Shown: piece after piece, positions 262-55,921 of the stretch | Layout: every line of letters begins with the position of its first letter | Numbering within the stretch: position 1 is the first letter of the stretch | NCBI GenBank assembly: GCA_963843575.1 | Contig: CAWJKZ010000014.1 | Coordinates: forward strand, 416,001-480,000 | Length of the DNA: 64,000 nucleotides | Source of the DNA: an uncultured Acidobacteriota bacterium | Lineage (GTDB): Bacteria; Acidobacteriota; UBA6911 | Reading direction: 5' to 3' | Program-made: the position numbers and the translations under genes | The notes under the pieces: model-generated | What the model was told of the DNA's origin: nothing | Seen by the model: the letters and a program-made list of their open reading frames with translations, nothing else | Databases searched by the model: none

Positions 262-1464
262 CTAAGCAGCCTTCCGCCCCGATTTCTGATCCATGGTCCG
301 GTACCACCAGTCCACAATCGGGGAGGCGATCGCAATCGAAGAGTACGTCCCGATTATGATCCCCACCGTCAGGGCGAAAGAAAATCCGTTAAGCACCTCC
401 CCCCCGAACACAAACAGGGCAAATACGGATAGGAAGGTCATACCGGAAGTCATTATGGTTCGCGACAGGGTCTGGTTGATGCTCGTGTTGAGTATACGGG
501 TCAGGGATTCCTTCCGCATAACCCGCAGGTTTTCCCTGACCCTGTCGAAAATCACAATCGTGTCGTTGACCGAATAGCCGACCAAGGTCAGCACGGCGGC
601 GATAACGGTCAGCGAAATCTCCTTCTGGGTCAGCGCGAACAAACCCAGGGTGATGGTGACGTCATGCAGCAGCGCCACGATGGCTGCCACACCAAAAATC
701 GGCTTGAACCGGAACCCGATGTACACGAGCATGCCGAGGAACGACAGCCCGACAGCCAGCGCGGCCCGGCGCCGCAGGTCCGCTCCGACCACGGCCCCGA
801 CGCTCTCGACGCCCTTGATCGCGAACGCTCCCGCATAGAAGTTGTTCTTGGCAAACTGCACCACCGCGCCGCTCACCCCGGGCGCCTGGCTGAGTTCGTC
901 GAGCGAGCCCACCAGACCGTCCTTCACCCGGTTGCGGAAGTCGAGAAGCGAGGTCGCGACCTCTTTGTAGTGCGACTCCAGTTCCTGGCTTGTCTTCCCC
1001 TGGGACTTCAGCCCGTCAGGATCGGCTTCGAGCAGCCGCGTCCGCAGCATGTCGAGGCCGACATTGTTGCCGTTGAAGTCCGGTTTGGGATTGTTCACGT
1101 TCTCCTTGTCCAGCGCTTCCTGCAGGAGCTTTCTCACAACCCGCTGCCCCGAGTCGACATCCTCGCCCGCCTGGTACACCCGCTGCATCCTTATCTGGAC
1201 GGAGTTCTTCTCGGGCACGTCGAAGCGCTGGATGATCGTTGTACCAACGGACTCGGGCCTGAGCGCACCGCGGATCTCATCGAGATTCGGCGTGTTTCTC
1301 AGCTTCAGATACACCACCGTGCCACCGGTGAAATCGATTCCGTAGGCCAACCCGCCCCGCAGGATCCAGCCCGCGATGCCCAATACCAGCAGGGCCGCCG
1401 ACACCCCTATAAACCACCATTTTCTACCGATCCAATCGATCGATATATCGCGAAAAATTTCCAC
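262..1464 (-). CDS. secF: protein translocase subunit SecF (with extra periplasmic insertion)
   Basis: GIDFTGG, ALLHDV, GYSVNDTIVIFDRVREN, TLSRTIMTS, GTYSSI motifs; downstream of secD. Confidence 0.97.
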   Translation of the reverse strand: MEIFRDISIDWIGRKWWFIGVSAALLVLGIAGWILRGGLAYGIDFTGGTVVYLKLRNTPNLDEIRGALRPESVGTTIIQRFDVPEKNSVQIRMQRVYQAGEDVDSGQRVVRKLLQEALDKENVNNPKPDFNGNNVGLDMLRTRLLEADPDGLKSQGKTSQELESHYKEVATSLLDFRNRVKDGLVGSLDELSQAPGVSGAVVQFAKNNFYAGAFAIKGVESVGAVVGADLRRRAALAVGLSFLGMLVYIGFRFKPIFGVAAIVALLHDVTITLGLFALTQKEISLTVIAAVLTLVGYSVNDTIVIFDRVRENLRVMRKESLTRILNTSINQTLSRTIMTSGMTFLSVFALFVFGGEVLNGFSFALTVGIIIGTYSSIAIASPIVDWWYRTMDQKSGRKAA

Positions 1465-1593: not shown

Positions 1594-3204
<1,611 letters not shown>

Positions 3205-3265: not shown

Positions 3266-3577
3266 TCAGCTGCCCTGATTCTCCTCCGGGCCCTGAATGC
3301 CCGCGACGGCACTCTTCGAGACTTCGATCTTGACCTGGTCGGAGATCTTCAGGATGAACGTCTTCTCCTTTACACCAGCGATGGTGCCATAGATGCCCGA
3401 GCTGGTGATTACCTTGTCGCCGTTCCGGAGGGCGGCGATCATCGCGTCCACCTTTTTCTGCCTCTTGCGCATCGGCATAAAGATCAGGAGGTAAAAGATG
3501 GCGCCGATAATGATGATAGGGGCAAATTGCACCAGGATATCCGGCGTCGCAGCCTGCATCAGTGTCGGCTGTTGCAT
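3266..3577 (-). CDS. yajC: preprotein translocase subunit YajC
   Basis: FYLLIFMPMRKRQKK, LRNGDKVITSSGIYG; tgt-yajC-secDF synteny. Confidence 0.95.
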   Translation of the reverse strand: MQQPTLMQAATPDILVQFAPIIIIGAIFYLLIFMPMRKRQKKVDAMIAALRNGDKVITSSGIYGTIAGVKEKTFILKISDQVKIEVSKSAVAGIQGPEENQGS

Positions 3578-3664: not shown

Positions 3665-4861
<1,197 letters not shown>

Positions 4862-11428: not shown

Positions 11429-11435
11429 AGCGACA

Positions 11436-11614
11436 GCCCCTGCAATGTTGGTGATGGCAACCAATATTTGAGCCAACATTCTATTTGACGGGAGCCTGAA
11501 TCGCTTCGCGGTGAGCGCACCTTTCCTTCGGGAACTCGAGCGCCTGAAGTGGAGCTAGGGCACCCCCTTGGTGACAAGGTTCAAGTAGAATTTGCCACAC
11601 GGCGGCGCGGGGGC
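11436..11614 (+). ncRNA. ssrS: 6S RNA
   Basis: ~180-nt rod: GCCCC/GGGGC ends, TGGCAA/TTGCCA, TTGAGCC/GGTTCAA, central bubble, GGGAGCCT/AGGGCACCC; followed by a T run; adjacent to ymdB and zapA, its usual neighbours. Confidence 0.88.
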
Positions 11615-11647
11615 CTTTTTTTTCGCGGGCAGGGGCGGACCGCTGCG

Positions 11648-12427
11648 ATGAGAGTGCTGTTTGTCGGGGACGTGTTCGGCAAAGCCGGACGGCGCATCGT
11701 GATCGAGAGTCTGCACGGCCTGATACACGAGCGCCAGATCGACTACTGCATCGCCAACGTTGAAAATGCCGCGGGCGGTTTCGGGATCACGCCGGAAATA
11801 GCCGACGAGATGCTGCGGTGCGAAATCGACCTGCTCACCTCGGGCAACCACATCTGGGACAAGCGGGCGATCATCCCATACCTTGCGGAGCAGCCCCGAC
11901 TGCTCCGCCCCCAGAACTACCCCGCCTCGGTTCCCGGCACGGGTGTCCACATCGGCCACACGGCCTCCGGGGTGCAGCTGGGGGTGCTCAACCTGCAGGG
12001 GCGCGTCTTCATGCCGACCCTAGATTGCCCATTCGCCGCGGGGGAGTCGGCTGTCGCTTACATCCGCAAGCAGACCCCGATTATCCTCGTCGATTTTCAC
12101 GGTGAGGCCAGCTCTGAGAAGCAGGCCTTCGCATGGTACATGGACGGGCGCGTCACAGCGGTGGTGGGGACCCACACCCACGTGCAGACCGCCGACGAGC
12201 GCATCCTGCCCAGGGGGACGGCGTTCATCACAGATCTGGGAATGACCGGGCCTTACGACTCGGTGATCGGCTCGGTGCCCGACCTCGCGCTGCAACGTTT
12301 CCTGACAGGGATACCGGTGCGGCTCGAACCAGCCTCGGGCAACCCGAGGCTCTGCGGCGTCATCATCGACGTCGATGATGAAACCGGCCGGGCCCGATCG
12401 ATCGTGCGGGTCAACCAGCACGGATGA
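11648..12427 (+). CDS. ymdB: YmdB/TIGR00282-family metallophosphoesterase
   Basis: LFVGDVFG, NVENAAGGFG, TSGNHIWD, VDFHGEASSEK, GTHTHVQTADE, DLGMTG. Confidence 0.93.
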   Translation: MRVLFVGDVFGKAGRRIVIESLHGLIHERQIDYCIANVENAAGGFGITPEIADEMLRCEIDLLTSGNHIWDKRAIIPYLAEQPRLLRPQNYPASVPGTGVHIGHTASGVQLGVLNLQGRVFMPTLDCPFAAGESAVAYIRKQTPIILVDFHGEASSEKQAFAWYMDGRVTAVVGTHTHVQTADERILPRGTAFITDLGMTGPYDSVIGSVPDLALQRFLTGIPVRLEPASGNPRLCGVIIDVDDETGRARSIVRVNQHG

Positions 12428-23733: not shown

Positions 23734-25484
23734 ATGACCAACAGCAACCTCTCCCACCTCACTCCGTACCTTGCCAGGTACCGGGTGAAACTGGCGCTCG
23801 GCCTCGCGATGGTTTTCCTCACGGTGTCGACGGGGATGTTCGCGCCGTGGGTCCTCAAATACGTCGTCGACGACCTGCAGTCCGCCTTCGCGCGGGAGAA
23901 GCTGCCGCAATATGCGGGGATGATCATCGGGATTTCGGTGGCGGAAGGGTTCTTCCGCTTCTGGATGCGGAAGATCCTGATCGGGGTGAGCCGCGAGGTC
24001 GAATACGACCTGCGCAACGACTTCCTCGCCCATCTGCAGAAAATGCCGCTCAGTTTCTTCCAGGCCCGCAACACGGGCGACATCATGTCGCGGGCCACCA
24101 ACGACCTGAACGCGGTCCGCTCGGTGCTGGGGCCCGGCATCATGTACTCGGCCACCACCATCGTCACGGTCGTCGCCGCGACCGCCATACTGCTGCGCAT
24201 CAACTGGCACCTTACTCTTCTCGCCTATGTGCCGCTCGGCCTGGCTTCGTTTACCGTAAAGCACTTCGGACAGCAGATTCACGACCGGTTCGAGAAGATC
24301 CAGGAGCAGTTCTCCAGCATCAGCACGATGGTCCAGGAGAACCTGTCCGGCATCCGGGTCGTGAAGGCGTTTGCCCGCGAGGAATCCCAGGTCGAGGAGT
24401 TCAAGGCCCTCAACCAGGACTATGTCCGCCGCAGCGTGTCGCTGATCAGGCTTTGGGGGGTGTTTTACCCGCTCATGTCGGCCCTGATCGGGCTTTCCTC
24501 GGCCGCTCTGCTATGGTGGGGGGGAGACAAGTGGTCTCGGGCGCCCTGAGCCTGGGCGAATTTGTCGCTTTCATCGGGTACCTGGCGATGCTGACCTGGC
24601 CGACGATCGCCGTCGGGTGGGTGATCAACATCTTCCAGCGCGGCTCCGCCTCCATGGGACGGATCCTGAGCGTCCTGCAGATCGAGCCGGCGATCCGGGA
24701 CTCGGCGACGGCGGCGGCTCCCGAATCCCCGCAGGGGGCCCTCGAGGTGCGGCACCTGTCCTTCGCGTACCCCGGGACGGAAATCCCGGTGCTGCACGAC
24801 ATCGCCTTCTCCGTCCCGGCCGGCCAGAGCCTTGCCATCGTGGGTCACACGGGCAGCGGCAAGTCGACCCTCATCAATCTGATTCCCCGGCTCTTCGACC
24901 CTCCGCCCGGAACCGTGTTCGTCGACGGGCGGGACGTCCGTGAGTGGCCCCTGGCCGAACTGAGGCGCATGATCGGCTACGTCCCCCAGGAGACCTTCCT
25001 GTTTTCGGATACGATATTTGAAAACATCGCCTTCGGACGGCGCGGGGAGGTGCCCGCGGACGACGTCGCGTGGGCCGCGCGCGTCTCCCAGGTCGCCGAG
25101 GACATCGGGCATTTCCCCCAGCAGTACGAGACGTTCGTCGGCGAACGCGGCATCACGCTGTCCGGCGGCCAGAAACAGCGCGTGGCCATCAGCCGCGCCG
25201 TGGCGCTTTCCCCCCGGATCCTCCTGCTGGACGACTCCCTGTCGAATGTCGACACCTACACCGAAGAGCGCATCCTGGGCGAACTGGCGCAGGTCATGGA
25301 GGGCCGCACCACCATTCTGGTTTCACACCGGGTCTCGACGGTGCGCAACGCCCATCAGATCATCGTCCTGCAGGATGGGGCGATCGTGGAACGCGGCACG
25401 CACGAGTCCCTGATGGCGCGTCAGGGCGCATACGCCGACCTCTATCAGAAGCAGCTTCTGGAGGAGGAACTGGCGACCGCCTGA
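23734..25484 (+). CDS. ABC exporter ATP-binding/permease subunit 1 (MdlA/YheI-like); frameshift in G run 24518-24524
   Basis: TM domain in ORF 23734-24549 continues in the 23847-25484 frame (WWGGRQVV); GHTGSGKS, LSGGQKQR, LLLDD. Confidence 0.9.
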
Positions 25485-25487
25485 CAT

Positions 25488-27390
25488 ATGCCTCCCCAAG
25501 CGCACGACGACCAGGTTCTCGGCAAGGCGTACGACGCCCGCCTCATGCGGCGGTTGCTGACCTACATCCGCCCGTACCGCGGCTCGGCCGCCCTCGCCAT
25601 CATCTACATCCTCGGCGGCGTCGGCGCTGTCGGTGCTCCCGCCCTACCTGACCAAGGTCGCCATCGACCGATACATCACGGCCGGCGACCGGACGGGGCT
25701 CGACCGTATCGCAGCGCTGTACGTCCTCACCCTGATGGCGGTCTTCGGCCTGAGCTACGGTCAGACCTGGGTCATGAACCTGATGGGCCAGAAGATCATG
25801 TACGACCTCCGCCTGCAGATCTTCCGGCACCTGCAGCGACTCGACGTGGCGTTTTTCGACCACAACCCGGTCGGCCGCCTGATGACACGGGTCACTACCG
25901 ACGTCGACGCCCTCAACGAGCTGTTCACCTCGGGGGTGATCACCATCTTCGGCGACGTGTGCACCCTGGTGGGAATCGTCATCACCCTGTTCCTGATGAA
26001 TTTCCGGCTCGCCCTGGCGGTCTTCTCCGTCGTGCCGCTCCTGTTCCTGGTCACATTTCTCTTCAAGATCAAGGTGCGCGACTCCTTCCGCCGGGTCCGC
26101 ACAGCGATTGCCCGCATCAACACGTTCCTCCAGGAGAACATCACCGGGACGGCCGTGGTGCAGATCTTCAACCAGGAGGCGAAACAACACGAGCGTTTCA
26201 CCCGCATCAACCGCGAGCACCTGGACGCCAATCTGCAGTCGATTTTCTACTACGCCATTTTCTACCCGCTCCTCGAACTCGTCGGCGCGCTGGCGGTCGC
26301 ACTGATCGTCTGGTACGGCGGACTCCAGGTGTTCGCGGGTGCGCTGACCCTGGGAGCCCTGGTGGCCTTCATCCAGTACTCCGACCGCTTCTTCCGACCG
26401 ATTTCGGATCTCAGCGAGAAGTACACGATCCTGCAGGCGGCCATGGCTTCCTCCGAGCGGATTTTCAAGCTCCTCGACACTCCGCCGGCCATCATCAGTC
26501 CTGCACGGCCCCAGGCCATCGAGGTCCGGTCGGGCCGCGTCGAATTCCGCAACGTCAGCTTCGGCTACAACCCGGGAGAGACCATCCTGCACGACGTGTC
26601 GTTCACGGTCGAGCCCGGGGAGAAGGTGGCGCTGGTCGGCGCCACCGGAGCCGGCAAATCCACCATCATCGGACTGCTCAGCCGTTTCTACGAGGTCGGA
26701 CAGGGCGAGATCCGCGTCGACGGGACGGACATCCGCGAGTTCGACCTGCACGGACTGCGCCGCTCGATCGGCATCGTCCTTCAGGACGTGTTCCTGTTTT
26801 CCGGAACCGTGGGGGACAACATCCGTCTCGCCAACGACCGCATCACGGCGGAGGAGGTGCGCGCCGCGGCCGATACGGTGCACGCCGCGCGCTTCATCGA
26901 AAGGCTGGCCAACCAGTACGACACGAGGGTCGGGGAACGCGGCTCGTCGCTGTCGGTCGGCCAGAAGCAGCTGCTAGCCTTCGCCCGCGCCCTGGCGTAC
27001 GATCCGAAAATCCTCGTCCTGGACGAAGCCACCTCCAGCATCGACACGGAAACCGAGCTGCTGATCCGCGACGCGCTGGCCAGATTGCTGGCCGGCCGCA
27101 CCTCGATCATCATCGCGCACCGGCTGTCGACCGTGCAGAACGCCGACCGCATCGTCGTGCTGCACCGCGGGCGCGTGCGCGAGACGGGCACCCACCAGGA
27201 ACTGCTGAAGGCGAAGGGGATTTACTGGAGACTCTACCAGCTGCAGTACAAGGACCAGCTGACGACCGGCGGGCATGGCGGGACAAACCGGGATGCCGGA
27301 AGTCAGCGGGCCCCCTTGCCCATGAGCACGACCGGAAACGTGCGCAGCAGGATCTTCACGTCCAGGAGCAGCGACCAGTTGTCGATATAG
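25488..27390 (+). CDS. ABC exporter ATP-binding/permease subunit 2 (MdlB/YheH-like); frameshift near 25614
   Basis: LGKAYDARLMRRLLTYIRPY N-terminus joins the 25633 frame (ILAASALSVLPPYL); GATGAGKS, LSVGQKQL, LVLDEAT. Confidence 0.9.
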
Positions 27391-28734
27391 TGCAGGTCCA
27401 GCTTCATCCACTCGTGGAAATCGATCTCGTTGCGCCCCGACACCTGCCAGAGACACGTGATGCCCGGCTTGACCGAGAGGCGCCGGCGCTGCCAGCGCGT
27501 GTATTCGCGCACTTCCTCCGGCAGCGGGGCCCGGGGCCCGACGAGGCTCATGTCGCCCGTCAGGACGTTCCAGAATTGCGGCCACTCGTCGATGGAGCTC
27601 TTGCGCAGGAAACGGCCCAGGGGCGTGACCCGTGGGTCGTTGCGCATCTTGAACACCGGGCCGTCCATCTCGTTCAGGTGCTTGATCTCCCAAAGGACGT
27701 CCTCCGCCCCCTCGCGCATGCTGCGGAACTTGTACAGGACGAACTTCCTCCCGTACAACCCGCAGCGGATCTGCCTGTAAATGATCGGCCCCTTGGAGGT
27801 CAAACCGATCAGGATGCCGAAGACGACCATCAGAGGCGCCAGGAGGACGAGCAGGACCGACGCGATGAGCACATCCATGACCCGCTTCAGGAACATCGAC
27901 AGCGGGTGATCCGGCCGGCTGCCAAAGGTTATCAGCGGGACGTTTTCGAGGAACTCCATCGAAACCTTGGAGACCTTGACGGGGAAGAAGTCCGCGGCTA
28001 TGCGGGTCTGGATTCCCTGCTCCTTGCAGATGGCCAGCACTTCGCGGAAAGACTCGAGGTCGCGGGGTTCGCTGCCGACGAAGATCAGCTCGTCGACGAC
28101 GTTGTTCTCGATGATCTGAGGGATGTCGGAGAGGTCCCCGAGTTCCCCGTCGCCGCCCCCCCGATCACCGTTGGCACGCACGTAGCCCAGGATCTTCAGA
28201 CCCCCAATCCGAATAGCGCGAAATGAGGGCGCCCATCGCACGCGCCTTGTCCCCGGCCCCGACGATCAGGATGTTGCGCAGCGGCGGCGACGAGTGCCGG
28301 CGCCGGCTGCTGTGGATGAGGACCGCCAGGCGGGCAACCGACAGCAGGCTCGCCTGCAGCAGCACGAACAGGGCGATCAGGAGTCGGCTCAGGTTCAGCG
28401 TCAGGGCGAACGAAAGGAAGCCGAGAAACAGGCCCAGGAGGACCGACGACTCCAGGATGATCCGGATCCTCCCCCACCCGGAGCGCGTGAACGAGATGCG
28501 GTACAGGCCGAGCGAGTAGGCGACGATCGCCCACCACGCGATCGCGAACACCACCATCCAGAGGTAGGCCCGCAGCGGGTGCAGTTCCGGATTGAGCAAT
28601 CCCTCGAGGCTGCCCGGGACGGCCGAGCCCGCATGAATGCGCGCGAGATAGGAAAGCGGAAACGCCGCGCACGTCAGCAACAGGTCGGTGACGAACTGCA
28701 AAGTCGTGAAAAGCTTGGCGCGCTCTCGGAACAT
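27303..28734 (-). CDS. polyprenyl glycosylphosphotransferase (priming sugar transferase, WcaJ/CpsE-like); frameshift at 28201-28205
   Basis: N-terminal TMs and ILIVGAG, then KRVMDV, YKFRSM, DPRVTPLGRFLRKSSIDEWPQ, MSLVGPR, KPGITCLWQV. Confidence 0.9.
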
Positions 28735-40571: not shown

Positions 40572-41402
40572 ATGCTCGCGCTCGAGATCCTTTACCTGGT
40601 GTTCGGCCTGGTCGTCGGCAGTTTCCTGAACGTCTGCATCTATCGCATCCCGCGCCGCGAGTCTATCGTGTTTCCCGGATCCCGCTGCCCGCACTGCGGC
40701 ACCGGAATCCGTCCGTACGACAATGTCCCGGTGCTCGCTTACCTCTGGCTCCGAGGACGCTGCCGCGACTGCGGCGCCCCGATTTCCCCGCAGTACCCGG
40801 TTGTAGAACTCGTCACCGGCGCCTCGTTTCTCGGCTGCGCACTGAAATGGGAGTTCGCCGCCCCGACTTACGTCAATTCCCTGTTCCTGGCCGTAGTCAT
40901 CGTCCTGGCCTTGATCGACTACCACCATCGTCTGCTGCCCAACGTCATCACCCTTCCGGGATGGCTCACAGGCCTTGCGCTCTCCCCCTTCCAGGACCCG
41001 GCGTTTTTCGATGAGCCGCTCGCGCGCCTCGTCGCAACGATGATCTTCCCCCGGGCGACCGAGGCGGCGCTCTCATGGGCGGCCTCGCTTATCGGGGGCC
41101 TGGTCGGCGGCGGGCTCCTGCTCTCCGTCGCGCTGCTTTATGAAAAGGTGCGGCGCAGACAGGGACTCGGGATGGGCGACGTGAAGATGATGGGTATGGT
41201 CGGGGCGTTCCTCGGCTGGCGGCTCGTCCTGCTGACCATTTTTGCCGGGTCGGTACTGGGAAGCATCATCGGGGTGTTCGTCGTTATCTTTCGCGGCGGA
41301 AGCCTGCAGACCAAACTCTCCTTCGGCACCTTCCTCGCCCTTGGGGCGATCCTGGCCGTGTTCCTCGGCGTCGGTATTCTGGCCTGGTACACCCGCGTCT
41401 GA
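40572..41402 (+). CDS. pilD: prepilin peptidase (A24)
   Basis: GSFLNVCIYRIP, SRCPHC, GRCRDC, ID and GMGDVK aspartates, FGTFL. Confidence 0.93.
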   Translation: MLALEILYLVFGLVVGSFLNVCIYRIPRRESIVFPGSRCPHCGTGIRPYDNVPVLAYLWLRGRCRDCGAPISPQYPVVELVTGASFLGCALKWEFAAPTYVNSLFLAVVIVLALIDYHHRLLPNVITLPGWLTGLALSPFQDPAFFDEPLARLVATMIFPRATEAALSWAASLIGGLVGGGLLLSVALLYEKVRRRQGLGMGDVKMMGMVGAFLGWRLVLLTIFAGSVLGSIIGVFVVIFRGGSLQTKLSFGTFLALGAILAVFLGVGILAWYTRV

Positions 41403-43018: not shown

Positions 43019-43305
43019 AGATCTCCGCCCTTTCTTTCACCGTGCAGGGCGTGGCCTGCCGATATGGAGATGTGAGTTCTGAAAGTAAGGTATCGCCCTG
43101 CCGAAATCAAGACCCGAGGCAGACACTGCGCCCGGAGGCGACCTCTCTCTTTGCATTAATGCCGGCGCCCGGCGCGCCCGATAAGGGAAGAGACTCCTTG
43201 GGCAGAGGCGCGCCTCGTATGGCGATATCCGGGTACTCGGCTACCCTTTGCAGCGGCGCACGCATGAGCGGGGTTAGCCCTCCGCGCCGCAGGAAGGTTG
43301 CTGTG

Positions 43306-43800
43306 ATGGGTTCCGCAACGCAGAAAGCGGCTTCACAACGCGAGTCGTCGGCCGCGGGGTTCACCCTCGTCGAAATGTTGATCGCCATGACCATCATGAC
43401 TTTCGGCCTCCTGGCCGCAGGGAGGCTCATGTACGTGGCCATGGGCTCGGCGTCGCTGGCCCGCTCGAAAGGCAGTGCCGCCATCGTTGCGCAGGACAAG
43501 CTGGAGTTCCTGGCCGACCGATACCGGCAGACTTCCGCCGCAGCGGAGCTCACCGACGGCAGCCATGGCCCGGAACAGGTGCAGGTGCTCAACACGGACA
43601 ATGGCCGCGTGCTGAACCGATTCAACGTCGCGTGGACCGTAGCCACCGTTTCCGACCCCCGCCCGGGGGTGACTTTGAAGGCCAAACAGGTCCGGGTGAC
43701 CGTGACCCCGATTCTCGCCACTTCCACGACGGTCAACACGAAGACCTCGCTCAACAAGGTCGTAAGTGTCACCGCCATTTTCAGTGCGAGGGTGAGCTGA
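43306..43800 (+). CDS. PilV-like minor pilin
   Basis: G|FTLVEMLIAM, FGLLA, AQDKLE. Confidence 0.85.
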   Translation: MGSATQKAASQRESSAAGFTLVEMLIAMTIMTFGLLAAGRLMYVAMGSASLARSKGSAAIVAQDKLEFLADRYRQTSAAAELTDGSHGPEQVQVLNTDNGRVLNRFNVAWTVATVSDPRPGVTLKAKQVRVTVTPILATSTTVNTKTSLNKVVSVTAIFSARVS

Positions 43801-49696: not shown

Positions 49697-50161
49697 ATGC
49701 TATCGGAAGCCACCAGACAGAAAATCGGCGAGTTGATGACCCGCTATCCGCAGGATAGGTCGGCGCTCATCCCCTCGCTGCGGCTGGCCCAGTCCGAAGC
49801 GGGGTACCTGACCCTCGAGGTCATCTCCGAAATCGCGGGCATATTCCGGCTGACGCCGAACGAGGTGTACGAGGTCGCCAGCTTCTACACGATGCTCTAC
49901 AAGCAACCGGTCGGCAGATACGTGCTCCAGGTGTGCACCAACATTTCGTGTCTGCTGTGCAACTCGGAGACGCTCATGGCGCACCTTCAGAAAAAGCTCG
50001 GGATTAAAGCTGGCGAGACCACACCGGACCGGAAGTTCACCCTGCTCGAGGTTGAGTGCCTCGGATCGTGCGGCACGGCTCCCGTTGTCCAGATCAACGA
50101 CGACTATCACGAGGACCTCACACCGGGAAAGCTGGACGAAATCCTGGACAAGCTGGCCTGA
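49697..50161 (+). CDS. nuoE: NADH-quinone oxidoreductase subunit E
   Basis: RSALIP.L..AQ, VASFYTM, VCTNISC and ECLGSC 2Fe-2S ligands. Confidence 0.93.
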
Positions 50162-50659
50162 ATGGAAACGATCCTGTTTTTTGTGTTCGGCGGCGTCGCG
50201 CTGATAGCAGCGCTTTGCGTCGTCTTGCTGAAGAGGGTGTTTTACTCGGCCCTCTCGCTGATTGTCTGTCTGAGCGCCGTTTCGGCACTGTACATGCTGC
50301 TGCAGGCCCCGTTCATCGCAGCCGTCCAGATAATCGTGTACGCCGGGGCCATCATGGTCCTCTTCCTGTTCGTGATCATGTTGCTCGATCCTTTTTCAGC
50401 CACCGCCCTCAAGGACAAGAAGCGCCACCTCACGACGGTCGGAGTGCTCCTCGGAGCCGCGGCGCTCACTCTGGTCTGCCCTCTTCTGTCGAGCTACAGG
50501 CCGGGCGGCGGCAGTCCCCCCGGATCCGAAGCGGTCGGAACCGTCGCCACCATCGGCTCGACCCTGTTCAGCCGTTACATGCTCCCGTTCGAAGTGACCT
50601 CGATCCTGATCCTGGTGGCTATCATCGGAACGGTAGTCCTGGCGAGGAGGCAGTCGTAG
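50162..50659 (+). CDS. nuoJ: NADH-quinone oxidoreductase subunit J
   Basis: [35 protein letters not shown]. Confidence 0.95.
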
Positions 50660-50664
50660 CCGCG

Positions 50665-50964
50665 ATGGAGATCTCCTACTATCTTGTCTTGAGTGCCCTA
50701 CTGTTTACCGTGGGAACCGTCGGGTTCATCGTCAAGAAGAACATTATTTCGATGTTCCTCTGCATCGAGTTGATGCTCAACGCGGTGAATCTCACGTTCG
50801 TGGCCTTCTCTCGCTACCTCAACCAGGTACACGGGCAGATCTTCGTGTTTTTCGTCATGGTGGTAGCCGCCGCGGAAGCCGCCGTCGGGCTGGCAATCAC
50901 GCTCAGCATCTACCGGAACCGGAACACGCTTAGTGTCGACGACGCAGATCTCATGAAGTGGTAG
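50665..50964 (+). CDS. nuoK: NADH-quinone oxidoreductase subunit K
   Basis: [22 protein letters not shown]. Confidence 0.95.
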
Positions 50965-50973
50965 AAAGACGGC

Positions 50974-52914
50974 ATGTCCAGCTATCTCTGGTTGATCCCC
51001 ATGCTTCCGCTCGCCGGCGCCGTGCTCAACGGCCTGGCAGGTAGGCGGCTGCCCAAAGTCTTCGTTTCCTTGACCGCCTGCGGGGCGTCTGGGGGAGCCT
51101 TCGTGGTCGCGATGGCGGCCGTACTCGATCTGCTGAAGCGGGCCCCGGCCGATCGGCACCTCGCCAACACCCTCTTCACCTGGATCTCCTCGGGGGACTT
51201 CGTCGCCCGGGCGGAGTTCCTGCTCGACCCGCTCTCGGCGGTGATGCTGCTGGTCGTCACCGGGGTCGGCTTCCTGATCCACGTCTATTCGATCGGGTAC
51301 ATGCACGCGGAGGACGGCTACTACAGGTTTTTTTCCTACTTGAACCTGTTCCTCTTCTCGATGCTGGTGCTGGTGCTGGCGGGCAACTTCCTTCTGATGT
51401 TCGTCGGGTGGGAGGGGGTAGGGCTCTGCTCGTACCTCCTGATCGGCTACTATTTCGACCGCAAGAGCGCGGCGGACGCCGGGAAAAAGGCCTTCATCGT
51501 CAACCGGATCGGCGACGTCGGGTTCATCCTGGGGATATTCCTAGTTTTCGACACCTTCAACAGCGTCGATTTCGGTGAGGTGTTCCGCCAGATCGCCGAA
51601 GGGGGTCAGCGATTTCCGGTTGAACAGGGGGTAGGGCTACTGACCGCCATCGGGTTGCTGCTTTTCGTCGGCGCGACGGGCAAGAGCGCACAGATACCGC
51701 TGTACGTCTGGCTGCCGGACGCCATGGAAGGTCCGACTCCGGTCAGCGCGCTCATTCACGCGGCCACGATGGTGACCGCCGGGGTCTACATGGTCGTGCG
51801 CTGCGCCCCGATTTTCAGCCGCGCCCCCGTTGCCATGGAGGTCGTGGCGCTCGTGGGCATCCTCACCGCGCTCGTCGCCGCCACCATCGGACTTGTGCAG
51901 ACGGACATCAAGCGCGTGCTAGCCTACTCGACCGTCAGCCAGCTGGGCTACATGTTCGTGGCCGCAGGGGTCGGGGCGTTTTCGGCAGGCGTGTTCCACC
52001 TTATGACCCACGCGTTTTTCAAGGCCCTCCTGTTCCTCGGAGCCGGCAGCGTGATCCATGCCCTGGGGGGCGAACAGGACCTTACCCGGATGGGCGGGTT
52101 GAGGCGGCACATTCCGATAACGTATCGCACCATGTTTGTCGGGGCCCTGGCCATAAGCGGCATCTTTCCGCTCGCGGGATTCTTCAGCAAGGACGAGATC
52201 CTGTGGTCGGCCTGGTCCAACGGGCATCCCGTCGTGTGGATCGTGGGTCTGGCGACGGCGGGGATGACTGCCTTCTACATGTTCCGGCTGGTGTTCCTTG
52301 CGTTTTTCGGGCGGGAGCGTTTTTCGCACGAGGCGAGCCACCATCTGCACGAGTCTCCGGCGAGCATGACCCTGCCGCTGATGGCCTTGGCGTTTCTGTC
52401 GTTGGTCGGCGGTTTCGTCGGGCTGCCCGCATGGCTGGGGCCGAACGCGTTTGCCCGCTTCATGGAGCCTTCCCTCGAGTTCGCCCGGGTGGCGGAGCAT
52501 CACGGGACGAGCCACGCGGTCGAAGCTGGATTCGCCGCAGTTTCCGTCGCGGTTGCCCTGCTGGGCATCTACCTTGCGTACCGGCTTTATGTGGCGCGGC
52601 CGGGTTCGGCCGACGCCCTTGCGCGTAGGTTCGGCTGGCTCTATACGCTGCTGTTCCACAAGTACTACGTGGACGAGATCTACGACGCGGCGCTCGTGAA
52701 ACCCGTGGTCGCGGGATCGCGCGAGGTGCTATGGAAAGGGATCGACGTGCAGGTGGTGGACGGGCTCGTCAACGGGATGGGGCTCTCCGTACAGGCATGG
52801 GCTGCGTATCTGAAGAACGTCCAGAACGGGTTTGTCCGCAGCTATGCCACCTGGATACTGTTCGGTGCGGTCGTCCTGCTGTTTTATGTCGCAGTCATGA
52901 GCGGGCGGGCCTGA
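50974..52914 (+). CDS. nuoL: NADH-quinone oxidoreductase subunit L
   Basis: GWEGVGLCSYLLIG, GKSAQIPLYVWLPDAMEGPTPVSALIHAATMV, THAFFKA. Confidence 0.96.
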   Translation: MSSYLWLIPMLPLAGAVLNGLAGRRLPKVFVSLTACGASGGAFVVAMAAVLDLLKRAPADRHLANTLFTWISSGDFVARAEFLLDPLSAVMLLVVTGVGFLIHVYSIGYMHAEDGYYRFFSYLNLFLFSMLVLVLAGNFLLMFVGWEGVGLCSYLLIGYYFDRKSAADAGKKAFIVNRIGDVGFILGIFLVFDTFNSVDFGEVFRQIAEGGQRFPVEQGVGLLTAIGLLLFVGATGKSAQIPLYVWLPDAMEGPTPVSALIHAATMVTAGVYMVVRCAPIFSRAPVAMEVVALVGILTALVAATIGLVQTDIKRVLAYSTVSQLGYMFVAAGVGAFSAGVFHLMTHAFFKALLFLGAGSVIHALGGEQDLTRMGGLRRHIPITYRTMFVGALAISGIFPLAGFFSKDEILWSAWSNGHPVVWIVGLATAGMTAFYMFRLVFLAFFGRERFSHEASHHLHESPASMTLPLMALAFLSLVGGFVGLPAWLGPNAFARFMEPSLEFARVAEHHGTSHAVEAGFAAVSVAVALLGIYLAYRLYVARPGSADALARRFGWLYTLLFHKYYVDEIYDAALVKPVVAGSREVLWKGIDVQVVDGLVNGMGLSVQAWAAYLKNVQNGFVRSYATWILFGAVVLLFYVAVMSGRA

Positions 52915-52915
52915 T

Positions 52916-54479
52916 ATGGAAATACGCAATATCCTGTCCTGGATTACCTACCTGCCCGCGCTCTTCGGCCTGATCGTGCTGGCCCTCCCCCCCCGCGGGG
53001 AGCGACTGATCAAGAGCATGGCGTTTGCCGGTTCCCTGGCCGTCTTCCTGCTCTCGCTCTCCCTGCTCGGAACCTTTGACGGCAGCCGCGGCGGCATGCA
53101 GTTCGAGGAGTCGGCGCCCTGGATGGACGCGGGCGGGTTTCGCATTGCGCACCATTTAGGCATCGACGGCATCAGCCTGTTCCTGGTGCTCCTCACGACC
53201 TTCATCATGCCCCTGGCCATCCTCTCGTCCTGGCGCTCGGTGGCGCAGCGGTTGCGCCAGTACATGGCGTGCATCCTGGTGCTCGAAACGGGGATCGTCG
53301 GCGTCTTCTGCTCCCTCGACCTCGTGCTCTTCTACGTGTTCTGGGAGGTCATGCTGATCCCGATGTATTTCCTGATCGGGATCTGGGGGGGGGAGCGCCG
53401 GATATATGCGGCCGTCAAGTTCATCCTCTACACGATGGCGGGCTCGCTCTTGATGCTCGTCGCCATCCTGTACCTGTTCTACCACGCGGGATCGACGTTT
53501 GACTGGGTGCGGATCTCACAGAACCTGGCCTCCGGGGCCGTGCAAATCACCCCGAACGAGGAGTTCTGGCTGTTTTTGGCATTCCTACTGGCCTTTGCGA
53601 TCAAGGTGCCGCTCTTCCCCTTCCACACCTGGCTTCCGGATGCCCACGTCGAAGCCCCGACCGCAGGCTCCGTGATCCTGGCCGCGGTCCTGCTGAAAAT
53701 GGGAACCTACGGGCTGCTGCGCTTCTGTCTCCCGCTCTTCCCCACCGCATCGCTCAGCGCGGCCCCGGTCCTTTCGATCCTCGGGCTGATTGGGGTCGTC
53801 TACGGTGCGCTGGTCGCCATGGTGCAGCCCGATCTGAAGAAGCTGGTAGCCTACTCCTCGGTCAGTCACATGGGCCTCATCGTCGTAGGGATCTTCGCCT
53901 TCACGACCCAAGGGCTGCAGGGTTCGACCCTCCAGATGCTGAACCACGGTCTCTCGACCGGAGCCTTGTTCCTCCTGGTCGGCATGATCTACGAGCGCCG
54001 GCACACGCGGCAGATTTCGCAATTCGGAGGGCTGGCGCACGTCAGCCCCATACTGGCCTCGTTTTTCCTGGTGGTGACCCTCTCGTCGATCGGTCTCCCC
54101 GGCATGAACGGCTTTGTGGGCGAAGTGCTGGTCCTGCTCGGGACCTTTGTGCAGAACCGCACCTACGCCGCAATCGCCGCGCTCGGGATGATCCTCGGCG
54201 CCGTCTACATGTTGTGGATGTACCAGCGGGTTTTCTTCGGCAAGGTGACCGTCCCCGAGAACGCGAGCATGGGTGACATCGGTGCGCGCGAGGTGGCCTT
54301 GTTGGTACCGATCGTGGCGCTCATGTTCTGGATGGGAGTCTACTCCAGCGCCGTTCCTCGGGCGCATGGAGGCCAGCCTGCGGGTGGTGCAGGACCGCAT
54401 CCAGCACGCGCGCGCGCCCGAAGGCGGGTTCCGGGTCGAACAGCTGCGCCTGCCGGCCCTCGAGGAGGCGAAACGGTGA
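52916..54479 (+). CDS. nuoM: NADH-quinone oxidoreductase subunit M; frameshift near 54345-54352
   Basis: FYVFWEVMLIP, KVPLFPFHTWLPDAHVEAP, YSSVSHMG; true C-terminus PFLGRMEASL...EEAKR* lies in the 54273-54479 frame. Confidence 0.93.
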
Positions 54480-55921
54480 TGATCTCCGATCTCGTCCCCC
54501 TGGTGCCCCAACTGATCCTGGTGATCGCCGGGATGGCCCTGATGCTCCTGGAGCCGTTCACCCCTGCGGAGCGCAAGGGCCGAATGGGGCAGATCGCCGT
54601 CATGGCCACGGCGGTCGCCGCCTACAGCCTCGCCTTTCAGTGGACGGGGCAGCCTCGCAGCGTCTTCGGCGGCATGATCATCGTCGACCGCTACAGCACC
54701 TTTTTCCAGTGGCTTTTCCTGGTGATCACGGGCGTCTGCGCCCTCGTCTCCATGCGCTTCAACCAACGGGAGTCGATCGACCGGGGTGAATACTACGCCC
54801 TGCTCCTGTTCGCCTGTTCGGGCATGTCGCTCATGGCCTCGAGCGGCGACCTGATCCTCACCTTCCTCGGCATTGAGATTCTGTCGATCGCCACCTACAT
54901 CCTGGCCGGATTCAAGCGCAATGACCCGAAGTCCAACGAGTCGTCCCTGAAATACTTCCTCCTCGGGTCGTTTGCGACGGCGTTCCTCCTTTACGGCATC
55001 GCCCTCGTCTATGGCAGCACGGGGAGCACCAACTACATGGTGATCCGCACGATGGCCTCGGCTTCGACGGCGCCGCAAGCCACGATGCTCATGGGAATGG
55101 TCCTCCTGCTGGTCGGGTTCGGCTTCAAGATCGCGCTGGTCCCCTTCCACGCCTGGGTGCCCGACGTGTACGAGGGGGCGCCGACGGCCGTGACTGCATT
55201 CATGACCGTCGGGCCGAAAGCCGCGGGCTTCGCGGCACTGATCCGGGTCCTGACGGAGGCCATACCGTTCCTCGGTTTCGACTGGACCCTGCTCCTCTGG
55301 GTCTGTGCAGTCTTGACGATGACTCTCGGCAACATCGTCGCCGTGCTCCAGAACAACATCAAGCGCATGCTGGCCTACTCGGCCATCGCGCACGCGGGGT
55401 ATATCCTCGTCGGCGTCGTGGCCAACAGCGAAGCCGGGTTCGGCGCGGTGCTGTTCTACCTCGTCGTGTACACGGTGATGAACCTGGGCGCCCTCAGCAT
55501 CGTGCTCTCCCTGAGCCGCCAAGGGGACCGCAGGGTGAACATGGAGGACTATGAGGGCCTCGGCCGGAACTCCCCTTTTCTCGCCGCTGCGCTTTCGGTC
55601 TTCCTGGTGTCGCTGGCCGGCATCCCGCTGACGGGCGGTTTCATGGGCAAGTTCTACCTGTTCAGCGCGGCCATCCAGCAGGGCTACATCGGCCTGGCGA
55701 TCATCGGGGTGCTCAACAGCCTGTTGTCGGTTTTTTATTACTTCCGCATCCTCATCGTCATGTATATGAAGGAACCGGCCGAGGCGCTCCAGGAGCCCGC
55801 CCCCGTGGCGCTGCCGGTGCTCGCCATCATTGCGATTGGCGTGGTCGGCATCATCTGGCTTGGAGTCTACCCGTCGGAGATTCTGAATCTTGCGGCGCAC
55901 TCCATCCCTGGCCTAAAATAG
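54479..55921 (+). CDS. nuoN: NADH-quinone oxidoreductase subunit N
   Basis: GAGGAGG RBS then ATG (MISDLVPLVPQ); ESSLKYFLLG, FKIALVPFHAWVPDVYEGAP, KRMLAYS. Confidence 0.94.
   Translation: MISDLVPLVPQLILVIAGMALMLLEPFTPAERKGRMGQIAVMATAVAAYSLAFQWTGQPRSVFGGMIIVDRYSTFFQWLFLVITGVCALVSMRFNQRESIDRGEYYALLLFACSGMSLMASSGDLILTFLGIEILSIATYILAGFKRNDPKSNESSLKYFLLGSFATAFLLYGIALVYGSTGSTNYMVIRTMASASTAPQATMLMGMVLLLVGFGFKIALVPFHAWVPDVYEGAPTAVTAFMTVGPKAAGFAALIRVLTEAIPFLGFDWTLLLWVCAVLTMTLGNIVAVLQNNIKRMLAYSAIAHAGYILVGVVANSEAGFGAVLFYLVVYTVMNLGALSIVLSLSRQGDRRVNMEDYEGLGRNSPFLAAALSVFLVSLAGIPLTGGFMGKFYLFSAAIQQGYIGLAIIGVLNSLLSVFYYFRILIVMYMKEPAEALQEPAPVALPVLAIIAIGVVGIIWLGVYPSEILNLAAHSIPGLK

Follow-up and report, generated by a model that had tools for sequence, protein, structure and literature searches.

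To our knowledge, SecDF has been studied almost only in Thermus, Deinococcus, Escherichia coli and Vibrio, and in these bacteria the periplasmic P4 domain of SecF looks like a small, passive base. The structural work described in PMC5974789 shows P4 and the base of the SecD P1 domain joined in one eight-stranded sheet or barrel, with the P1 head resting on the base in the I form but located close to the membrane in the F forms. According to the same account, double-cysteine pairs placed at SecD–SecF positions formed disulfides in vivo and blocked function, and other periplasmic sites of SecDF may also touch the substrate (PMC5974789). A second described system that bears on the present work is the periplasmic protein ComEA, which carries two helix-hairpin-helix (HhH) motifs. 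In V. cholerae ComEA, residues K62 and K63, directly after the Gly-Ile-Gly of the first motif, are reported as needed both for transformation and for binding DNA in vitro; transformation is abolished by K63E and does not occur with G60V or G60E, and variants without either HhH motif lose DNA binding (PMC3879209). Here, we describe a SecF in which a folded domain related in sequence to the ComEA module is inserted into P4. It is encoded at the start of a 64,000-nucleotide stretch of DNA from an uncultured Acidobacteriota bacterium (contig CAWJKZ010000014.1, positions 416,001 to 480,000), referred to below as the window. A first-pass annotation of the window, made from the letters and a list of their open reading frames (ORFs), had drawn attention to this gene.

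The window opens with the minus-strand gene row tgt-yajC-secD-secF, which has the identical order in E. coli K-12, with secF adjacent to secD and yajC on one strand. The 400-residue product of secF is a full member of the SecF family. It scored 295.4 bits against TIGR00966, compared to a curated cut-off of 160, and Pfam identified SecD_SecF_C at residues 213–389 (218.9 bits; cut-off 20.5) and Sec_GG at residues 38–56 (22.3 bits; cut-off 20.3). A score above the cut-off and a GG motif are likewise features of the solved SecDF proteins (TIGR00966; 3AQP, 5XAN, 5YHF, and E. coli SecF in 5MG3). When the protein was compared with the PDB sequences using phmmer, the SecDF chains 5xan and 3aqp were matched with E-values of about 1e-59 to 1e-56, and the E-value for E. 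coli SecF was 5e-52. An AlphaFold2 model of the full-length protein, built from a 40-row alignment with a predicted local distance difference test score (pLDDT) of 78.4, matched the solved SecDF structures 5xap, 5mg3_F, 5yhf and 3aqp with E-values between 7.8e-14 and 7.7e-11. The model has the fold of the SecF half, with one transmembrane helix, a periplasmic ferredoxin-like P4 and five further transmembrane helices; the six-helix membrane domain and the β-α-β-β-α-β arrangement of P4 are those of the solved proteins. The partner SecD encoded in the window has ordinary P1 domains, with both SecD_1st and P1_head found by Pfam. In seven related loci recovered by a genome scan (see below), secD was present upstream of secF in six, these being the loci where the stored DNA extends upstream; the seventh, L002, starts within secF.

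The difference from the described proteins lies within P4. Approximately 92 residues (121–212) are inserted between helix α2 and strand β4 of this domain. Neither E. coli SecF nor the TIGR00966 model contains them, and no solved SecDF sequence could be aligned over this region. The match to TIGR00966 is split into two stretches, with residues 205–387 corresponding to model positions 97–279. Alignment of the 40-row SecF family to E. coli SecF (323 residues) with hhalign paired 281 columns over query residues 9–385, and the query residues that were left unaligned all fell within about 100–212. Strand β4 was placed on the equivalent E. coli strand, just ahead of the conserved VGPSVG, and in the phmmer comparison residues 125–295 of the solved E. 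coli SecF chain were matched by query residues 213–383. The first-pass annotation had described an over-long SecF with about 80 extra residues in its periplasmic domain at positions 841–1080. These positions correspond to SecF residues 129–208, and their translation agrees with the sequence quoted there; the insertion is borne out and extends slightly further than had been thought.

In the AlphaFold2 model, the preceding part of P4 consists of a β-strand (48–55), an α-helix (61–67), two β-strands (77–80 and 88–93) and a second α-helix (103–118). The insert then contributes four helices, at residues 137–147, 159–180, 188–193 and 199–208, followed by the last P4 strand (214–222) and by the second transmembrane helix, which begins at residue 224. 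Because β4 leads directly into the membrane, the point of insertion should be the membrane-distal tip of P4, a position that follows from the topology of the domain and not from coordinates.

The insert is ordered and under constraint, with a degree of conservation close to that of the remainder of P4. In a separate model built from a 13-row alignment, it formed four helices with a pLDDT of 84.7 and a predicted template modelling score of 0.74. Within the full-length model, its 10-residue blocks had pLDDT values of 85–93, the best in the protein, compared to 52–70 for the P4 core. Across 40 SecF sequences, the mean fraction of the majority residue was 0.62 in the insert, 0.70 in the P4 core and 0.87 in the membrane domain, and 18 of the 92 insert columns were conserved at 90% or above. 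Residues D129, D148, Y166, R177 and G183 were invariant in all 40 sequences, while P149 was present in 39, and K157 and T158 in 37 each. In the three most distant sequences (45–46% overall identity), the insert was 36–40% identical to that of the window, compared to 27–34% for the P4 core.

The distribution of the insert was assessed by several searches. A phmmer search with the insert against 1.84 billion representatives clustered at 50% identity returned 18 matches at E ≤ 0.001, of which 16 were SecF or SecF fragments. The other two, P0020 and P0022, are repeat proteins other than SecF that matched over a short stretch (at most query residues 4–43), and were rejected as spurious carriers. 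In a whole-protein search of a collection clustered at 90% identity, 7997 of 8000 scored candidates had E ≤ 1e-20, and the best 120 of these were listed. Together with the matches of a further search they made up 122 relatives, with overall identities down to 45%. The insert profile matched all 122 at E ≤ 1e-5; these are the closest relatives, and the listing does not reach shorter SecFs. Two copies of the insert in tandem were found in three of the 122 (P0008, P0084 and P0089; 478–479 residues). In P0008, the first copy kept the D-P-D-N-L-R-S-Q-N-K loop and had lost the Tyr-Arg ... Gly-Leu-Val motif of the second half. The precomputed Pfam lists of all 120 listed relatives contained only SecD_SecF_C and Sec_GG, leaving the insert unannotated.

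A genome scan with the single peptide pattern [ATG]DPD[NG][LM]K[SA]Q, derived from a 6-row alignment, matched 35 stretches, of which seven were confirmed; all seven lie in Acidobacteriota metagenome-assembled genomes, and the number is a lower bound because the pattern is narrow. Only one cluster name points to an organism, again Acidobacteriota, and the named carriers of the insert thus come only from this phylum, in agreement with the earlier suggestion of a lineage-wide trait. Among the 840 six-frame ORFs of the window, there was no second copy of the insert domain and no YbaV/ComEA-like gene, the latter judged with a narrow YbaV model. The earlier statement that no functional description was known also held, as none was found in full-text searches whose results were judged from titles and the starts of abstracts, with subscription journals outside their coverage.

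We read the insert as a divergent module of the HHH_3 type, in which the second half is secure and the first half is plausible but remodelled. As a representative of ComEA we used E. coli YbaV, which RefSeq annotates as a "helix-hairpin-helix 3 family protein". The insert profile matched YbaV in hhalign with a probability of 81.5, and a 10-row YbaV family with a probability of 89.6 (E 1.9e-6) over 33 columns, in which insert profile positions 47–81 lay on YbaV 84–116. Against YbaV cut to its HhH domain, the score was 36.5 and the probability 91.8. This score was more than 10 standard deviations (SD) above shuffled controls: 150 shuffles of the ComEA profile had a mean of 10.0 (SD 1.9) and 150 shuffles of the insert profile a mean of 9.4 (SD 2.0), the maximum among the 300 column shuffles was 16.7, and the reversed profile scored 17.6. 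In greedy mode, positions 1–62 of the ComEA domain were colinear with insert positions 6–89 over 62 columns, the insert being longer by about 15 residues behind the first hairpin. The ComEA profile used in these comparisons was shallow, since the search seeded with YbaV gave only close enterobacterial relatives among the rows listed.

Weaker matches pointed in the same direction. When 13 isolated inserts were compared with Pfam at E ≤ 10, HHH_3 was the commonest match (7 of 13, best E 1.6e-4), followed by HHH (4), T2SSK_1st (3) and HHH_5 (2), so that HhH families dominated. HHH_3 was matched at E ≤ 1 in five of 12 full-length relatives, with a best score of 18.6 bits (P0007), and always through profile positions 25–64 of 65 on the last ~40 residues of the insert. 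The window insert alone had no match in NCBIfam. In a comparison of the insert profile with the PDB sequences, EEPD1 ranked first with an E-value of 0.016; it was matched in two stretches, both of which carry the Ala-x-x-Ile-x-x-Tyr/Phe-Arg ... Gly motif common to the insert. The N-terminus of EEPD1 contains HhH motifs. A ComEA chain, 8dfk, was matched in the same comparison with an E-value of 1.4. A direct sequence search of the insert against the PDB reached a best E-value of 0.03, and its top entries, a complex I subunit and tau, were dismissed as chance matches.

The likeness to ComEA extends to the layout of the domain. Both are periplasmic, both measure about 65–90 residues, and the four helices of the insert follow the order of HHH_3 (PF12836) in the models and in hhalign. 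Shared elements are the Asp/Ser-x-Asn cap, the Ala-x-x-Ile-x-x-Tyr-Arg helix, the Gly-x-Phe/Val-x-Ser/Thr turn and Asp-Leu-x-x-Val-Pro-Gly. The HhH1-like half of the insert starts with the invariant Asp129 and a near-invariant cap at Asn131, continues in helix 137–147 and ends in the conserved loop 148–158, in which D148-P149-D150-x-L-(K/R)-x-Q-x-K157-T158 stands where the Gly-x-Gly hairpin would be. The first ~15 residues of the long helix (159–180) are extra with respect to ComEA, whereas its end has the Ala-x-x-x-x-Asp-Tyr-Arg common to ComEA. The HhH2-like half consists of G183-L-V-x-S-L-D-E-L, the hairpin (A/V)-x-G196-V-(S/T), and the final helix 199–208. The insert differs from ComEA in its Pfam scores below the cut-off, in the 11-residue loop and ~15 additional residues at the first hairpin, in the Gly-Val-Ser/Thr of the second, in the lack of the lysine pair, and in its acidic net charge. 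ComEA is also free or membrane-anchored, whereas the insert is embedded within a membrane protein.

We then compared the residues on which DNA contact depends. The E. coli YbaV counterpart of ComEA hairpin 1 is Gly-Val-Gly-Leu-Lys-Lys, and the counterpart in the SecF insert is D148-P149-D150-(N/G)151-L152-(K/R)153-(S/A/T/G)154, in a register set by a stretch of the alignment that has low confidence. The first two hairpin positions are Pro149 (39/40) and Asp150 (34/40) in place of Gly-x-Gly. Position 154, equivalent to K63, is basic in none of the 40 sequences and is Ser, Ala, Thr or Gly in all of them, so that the lysine pair is missing. In the three most distant members, position 153 is Ala or Ser. 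Hairpin 2 has G196 in 34/40, Val or Ile at 197 in 33/40 and Ser or Thr at 198 in 35/40, with Gly at 198 in only two. Of the 40 inserts, 34 carry a negative net charge, five are neutral and one has a charge of +1 (range −6 to +1), and the isoelectric point is below 7 in 39, compared to a net charge of +1 to +2 in 10/10 YbaV HhH domains. The insert departs from a ComEA-type DNA-binding HHH_3 domain in three defining respects: its Pfam scores stay under the cut-off, Gly-x-Gly is missing, and so is the lysine pair. The first-pass annotation had suggested a link to DNA or polyanion handling; these sequences do not support a DNA-handling role.

The loss of both Gly-x-Gly hairpins, of the lysine pair and of the basic charge leads us to read the insert, with moderate confidence, as a co-opted, divergent double-HhH module of the ComEA type, which would serve on P4 as a protein-contacting "head" that does not bind DNA. 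Such an HhH-derived module might sit as a small head on SecF P4 beside the mobile SecD P1 head, where it could brace, limit or gate the movement of the latter. Alternatively, it could present an extra docking surface for the emerging preprotein or for a periplasmic partner. In either case, the D-P-D-x-L-K-x-Q-x-K-T loop would be the likely contact site. A possible precedent is provided by HhH-fold modules with roles other than DNA metabolism, such as PsbU of photosystem II, an extracytoplasmic module on a membrane complex, which has an HhH-like fold and binds protein rather than DNA. Four PsbU chains were among the top 12 Foldseek rows, with root-mean-square deviations of 2.9–4.0 over 36–47 columns, but their E-values of 1.3–3.9 were not significant and no sequence relation was found. 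By this analogy, the insert would act at most like an HhH protein-contact module.

A number of observations weigh against this reading, and some of them concern the ancestry of the module. No HHH_3 match among the relatives reached the Pfam cut-off of 27 bits, and the window insert had no Pfam match at all, HHH_3 being absent at E ≤ 10. The confident hhalign alignment covers 33 columns and the second HhH only, while the first half was aligned in greedy mode with low confidence. Of the 141 PDB matches that Foldseek found at E ≤ 10, none had E ≤ 0.001; the best template modelling scores were about 0.4–0.5, and no ComEA chain was among the rows listed. The ESM Atlas, searched in all clusters and in the named clusters, gave no usable match. 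The earlier proposal of a ComEA/HHH_3-like domain thus stands for the second half of the insert, through hhalign and the sub-threshold HHH_3 matches, but the window copy has no match in Pfam and there is no significant match in Foldseek. Other observations concern the proposed role. The K62-equivalent position 153 is Lys or Arg in 34/40 sequences and, like K157, has been kept, so that some anion contact is possible. The YbaV comparator is itself only mildly basic, which makes the charge argument modest, supportive rather than decisive. Finally, both the placement at the distal tip and the proximity to the P1 head were deduced from topology only.

The alternative that fares best is a helical domain peculiar to this lineage and of separate origin from HhH proteins, with a ComEA-like motif in its last 35 residues that arose by convergence or is a short shared structural motif. 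The absence of significant matches in Foldseek, Pfam and the ESM Atlas is in keeping with such an origin, as is the first "hairpin", which is an 11-residue loop followed by the ~15 extra residues, and not a tight hairpin. The first domain of the minor pseudopilin GspK (T2SSK_1st, PF21687), another weak lead, was considered as the closest family: GspK is periplasmic, was a Pfam match in three of the 13 inserts (best E 0.0059) and occupied Foldseek row 8 (3ci0_K, TMq 0.44). This candidate was rejected with an hhalign probability of 1.6 against E. coli GspK, which leaves room for an unrelated domain. However, an unrelated domain is difficult to reconcile with an hhalign score so far above the shuffles, with the dominance of HHH_3, HHH and HHH_5 among the weak Pfam matches, with the motif shared with EEPD1, or with a helix order like that of HHH_3. 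The top Foldseek rows, individually not significant, are mostly HhH-containing proteins and include the lyase domain of polymerase lambda/beta, PsbU, GspK, endonuclease III, AlkA and the MUS81 HhH domain; HhH proteins make up more than half of the rows listed. On balance, we consider an unrelated domain unlikely.

A bolder version of the protein-contact reading, which we find improbable, is a "two-headed" SecDF in which the HhH head would grip the polypeptide alongside the P1 head, or in which the loop would bind a periplasmic polyanion or partner, coupling the motor to something beyond ordinary secretion. ComEA, which acts as a DNA ratchet, would provide the analogy for coupling SecDF movement to such a non-secretion process.

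Very unlikely, in our judgement, is that the insert is a working ComEA-like binder that tethers periplasmic DNA or polyanion to the SecDF motor. The sequence relation to the ComEA module, the common periplasmic location, and the basic residues at 153 and 157 near hairpin 1 would suit such a function, but it would have to operate with Pro and Asp in hairpin 1, with almost no Gly-x-Gly in hairpin 2, with no basic residue at the K63 position, without a lysine at 153 in the most distant members, and with a net acidic domain in most sequences. In ComEA, the single changes G60E and K63E already abolish function (PMC3879209). Just as hard to sustain is the view that a variable loop has merely grown, tolerated and neutral in function, since the already known size variation of the SecD/SecF periplasmic regions (NCBIfam SecDF models span 755 to 1403 positions) and the tandem duplications, which show that the site tolerates extra mass, are outweighed by the retention of the insert in all 122 of the closest relatives, its highly conserved columns and nearly invariant loop motif, a conservation that exceeds that of the P4 core among the most distant sequences, and the highest folding confidence anywhere in the model.

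Table 1. Parts of the window SecF and genes of the tgt-yajC-secD-secF row, with positions in the window.
Feature	Position	Strand	Basis
secF	262..1464	minus	ORF, 400 residues, GTG start; TIGR00966 295 bits; Pfam SecD_SecF_C and Sec_GG
P4 strand β4, residues 213–222, straight into transmembrane helix 2	799..828	minus	AlphaFold2 model; hhalign against E. coli SecF
Inserted domain, residues 121–212	829..1104	minus	Gap against TIGR00966 and E. coli SecF; four helices
HhH2-like half, residues 183–208	841..918	minus	hhalign to YbaV 84–116, probability 82–92%; sub-threshold HHH_3
Long helix, residues 159–180	925..990	minus	Model and hhalign; Y166 and R177 invariant
HhH1-like half, residues 129–158	991..1080	minus	Column counts (n = 40); greedy hhalign with first YbaV HhH, low confidence
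P4 N-terminal part, residues 36–120, β1-α1-β2-β3-α2	1105..1359	minus	AlphaFold2 secondary structure; Sec_GG 38–56
secD	1594..3204	minus	536 residues; Pfam SecD_1st, SecDF_P1_head, SecD_SecF_C
yajC	3266..3577	minus	Pfam YajC, E 9.9e-25
tgt (queuine tRNA-ribosyltransferase)	3665..4852	minus	Pfam TGT, E 7e-154

Downstream of secF in related Acidobacteriota loci, genes for a TonB_C protein and a MotA/ExbB protein come next on the strand of secF. These ORFs were confirmed by Pfam in L001 (3920–5485) and L007 (3939–5465), and similar ORFs are present in L002, L005 and L006. The window stops 261 bases past secF, and the genes downstream of its secF fall outside.

Several other features of the window were recorded, all on the plus strand. 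A 1001-residue ORF (52916–55921) with two Proton_antipo_M stretches directly follows a NuoL-like gene (50974–52914) and may be a fused NuoM-NuoN-type subunit. Next to these, a 302-residue ORF (50056–50964) has a NuoK domain (Oxidored_q2) at residues 209–302, while its first ~200 residues had no Pfam match at 1e-5. A NuoJ-NuoK fusion or a misplaced start could account for this. A 6S RNA (11434–11617; Rfam RF00013, 71 bits) overlaps the start of a YmdB-like ORF (11549–12427), which therefore probably starts further downstream. A 912-residue ORF (25488–28226) with no Pfam family at E ≤ 1e-5 lies just downstream of an ABC-transporter ATPase (23847–25484). At 40572–41402 and 43042–43800, a prepilin peptidase (A24) is close to an ORF with an N-terminal methylation motif, so that genes for a type IV pilus or pseudopilins lie nearby.

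The carriers of the insert are annotated as plain SecF, and the domain is missed. If it is indeed derived from HhH, it adds a case in which a DNA-binding module lost the residues for DNA contact and found a new use outside the cytoplasm. An insert-bearing SecF also offers a natural variant for asking what P4 does. We consider it more probable that the insert serves the export motor as an accessory of this lineage than that it handles DNA, and the presence of a conserved, folded module on P4 in a large clade of soil bacteria suggests that the motor has been tuned in a lineage-specific way.

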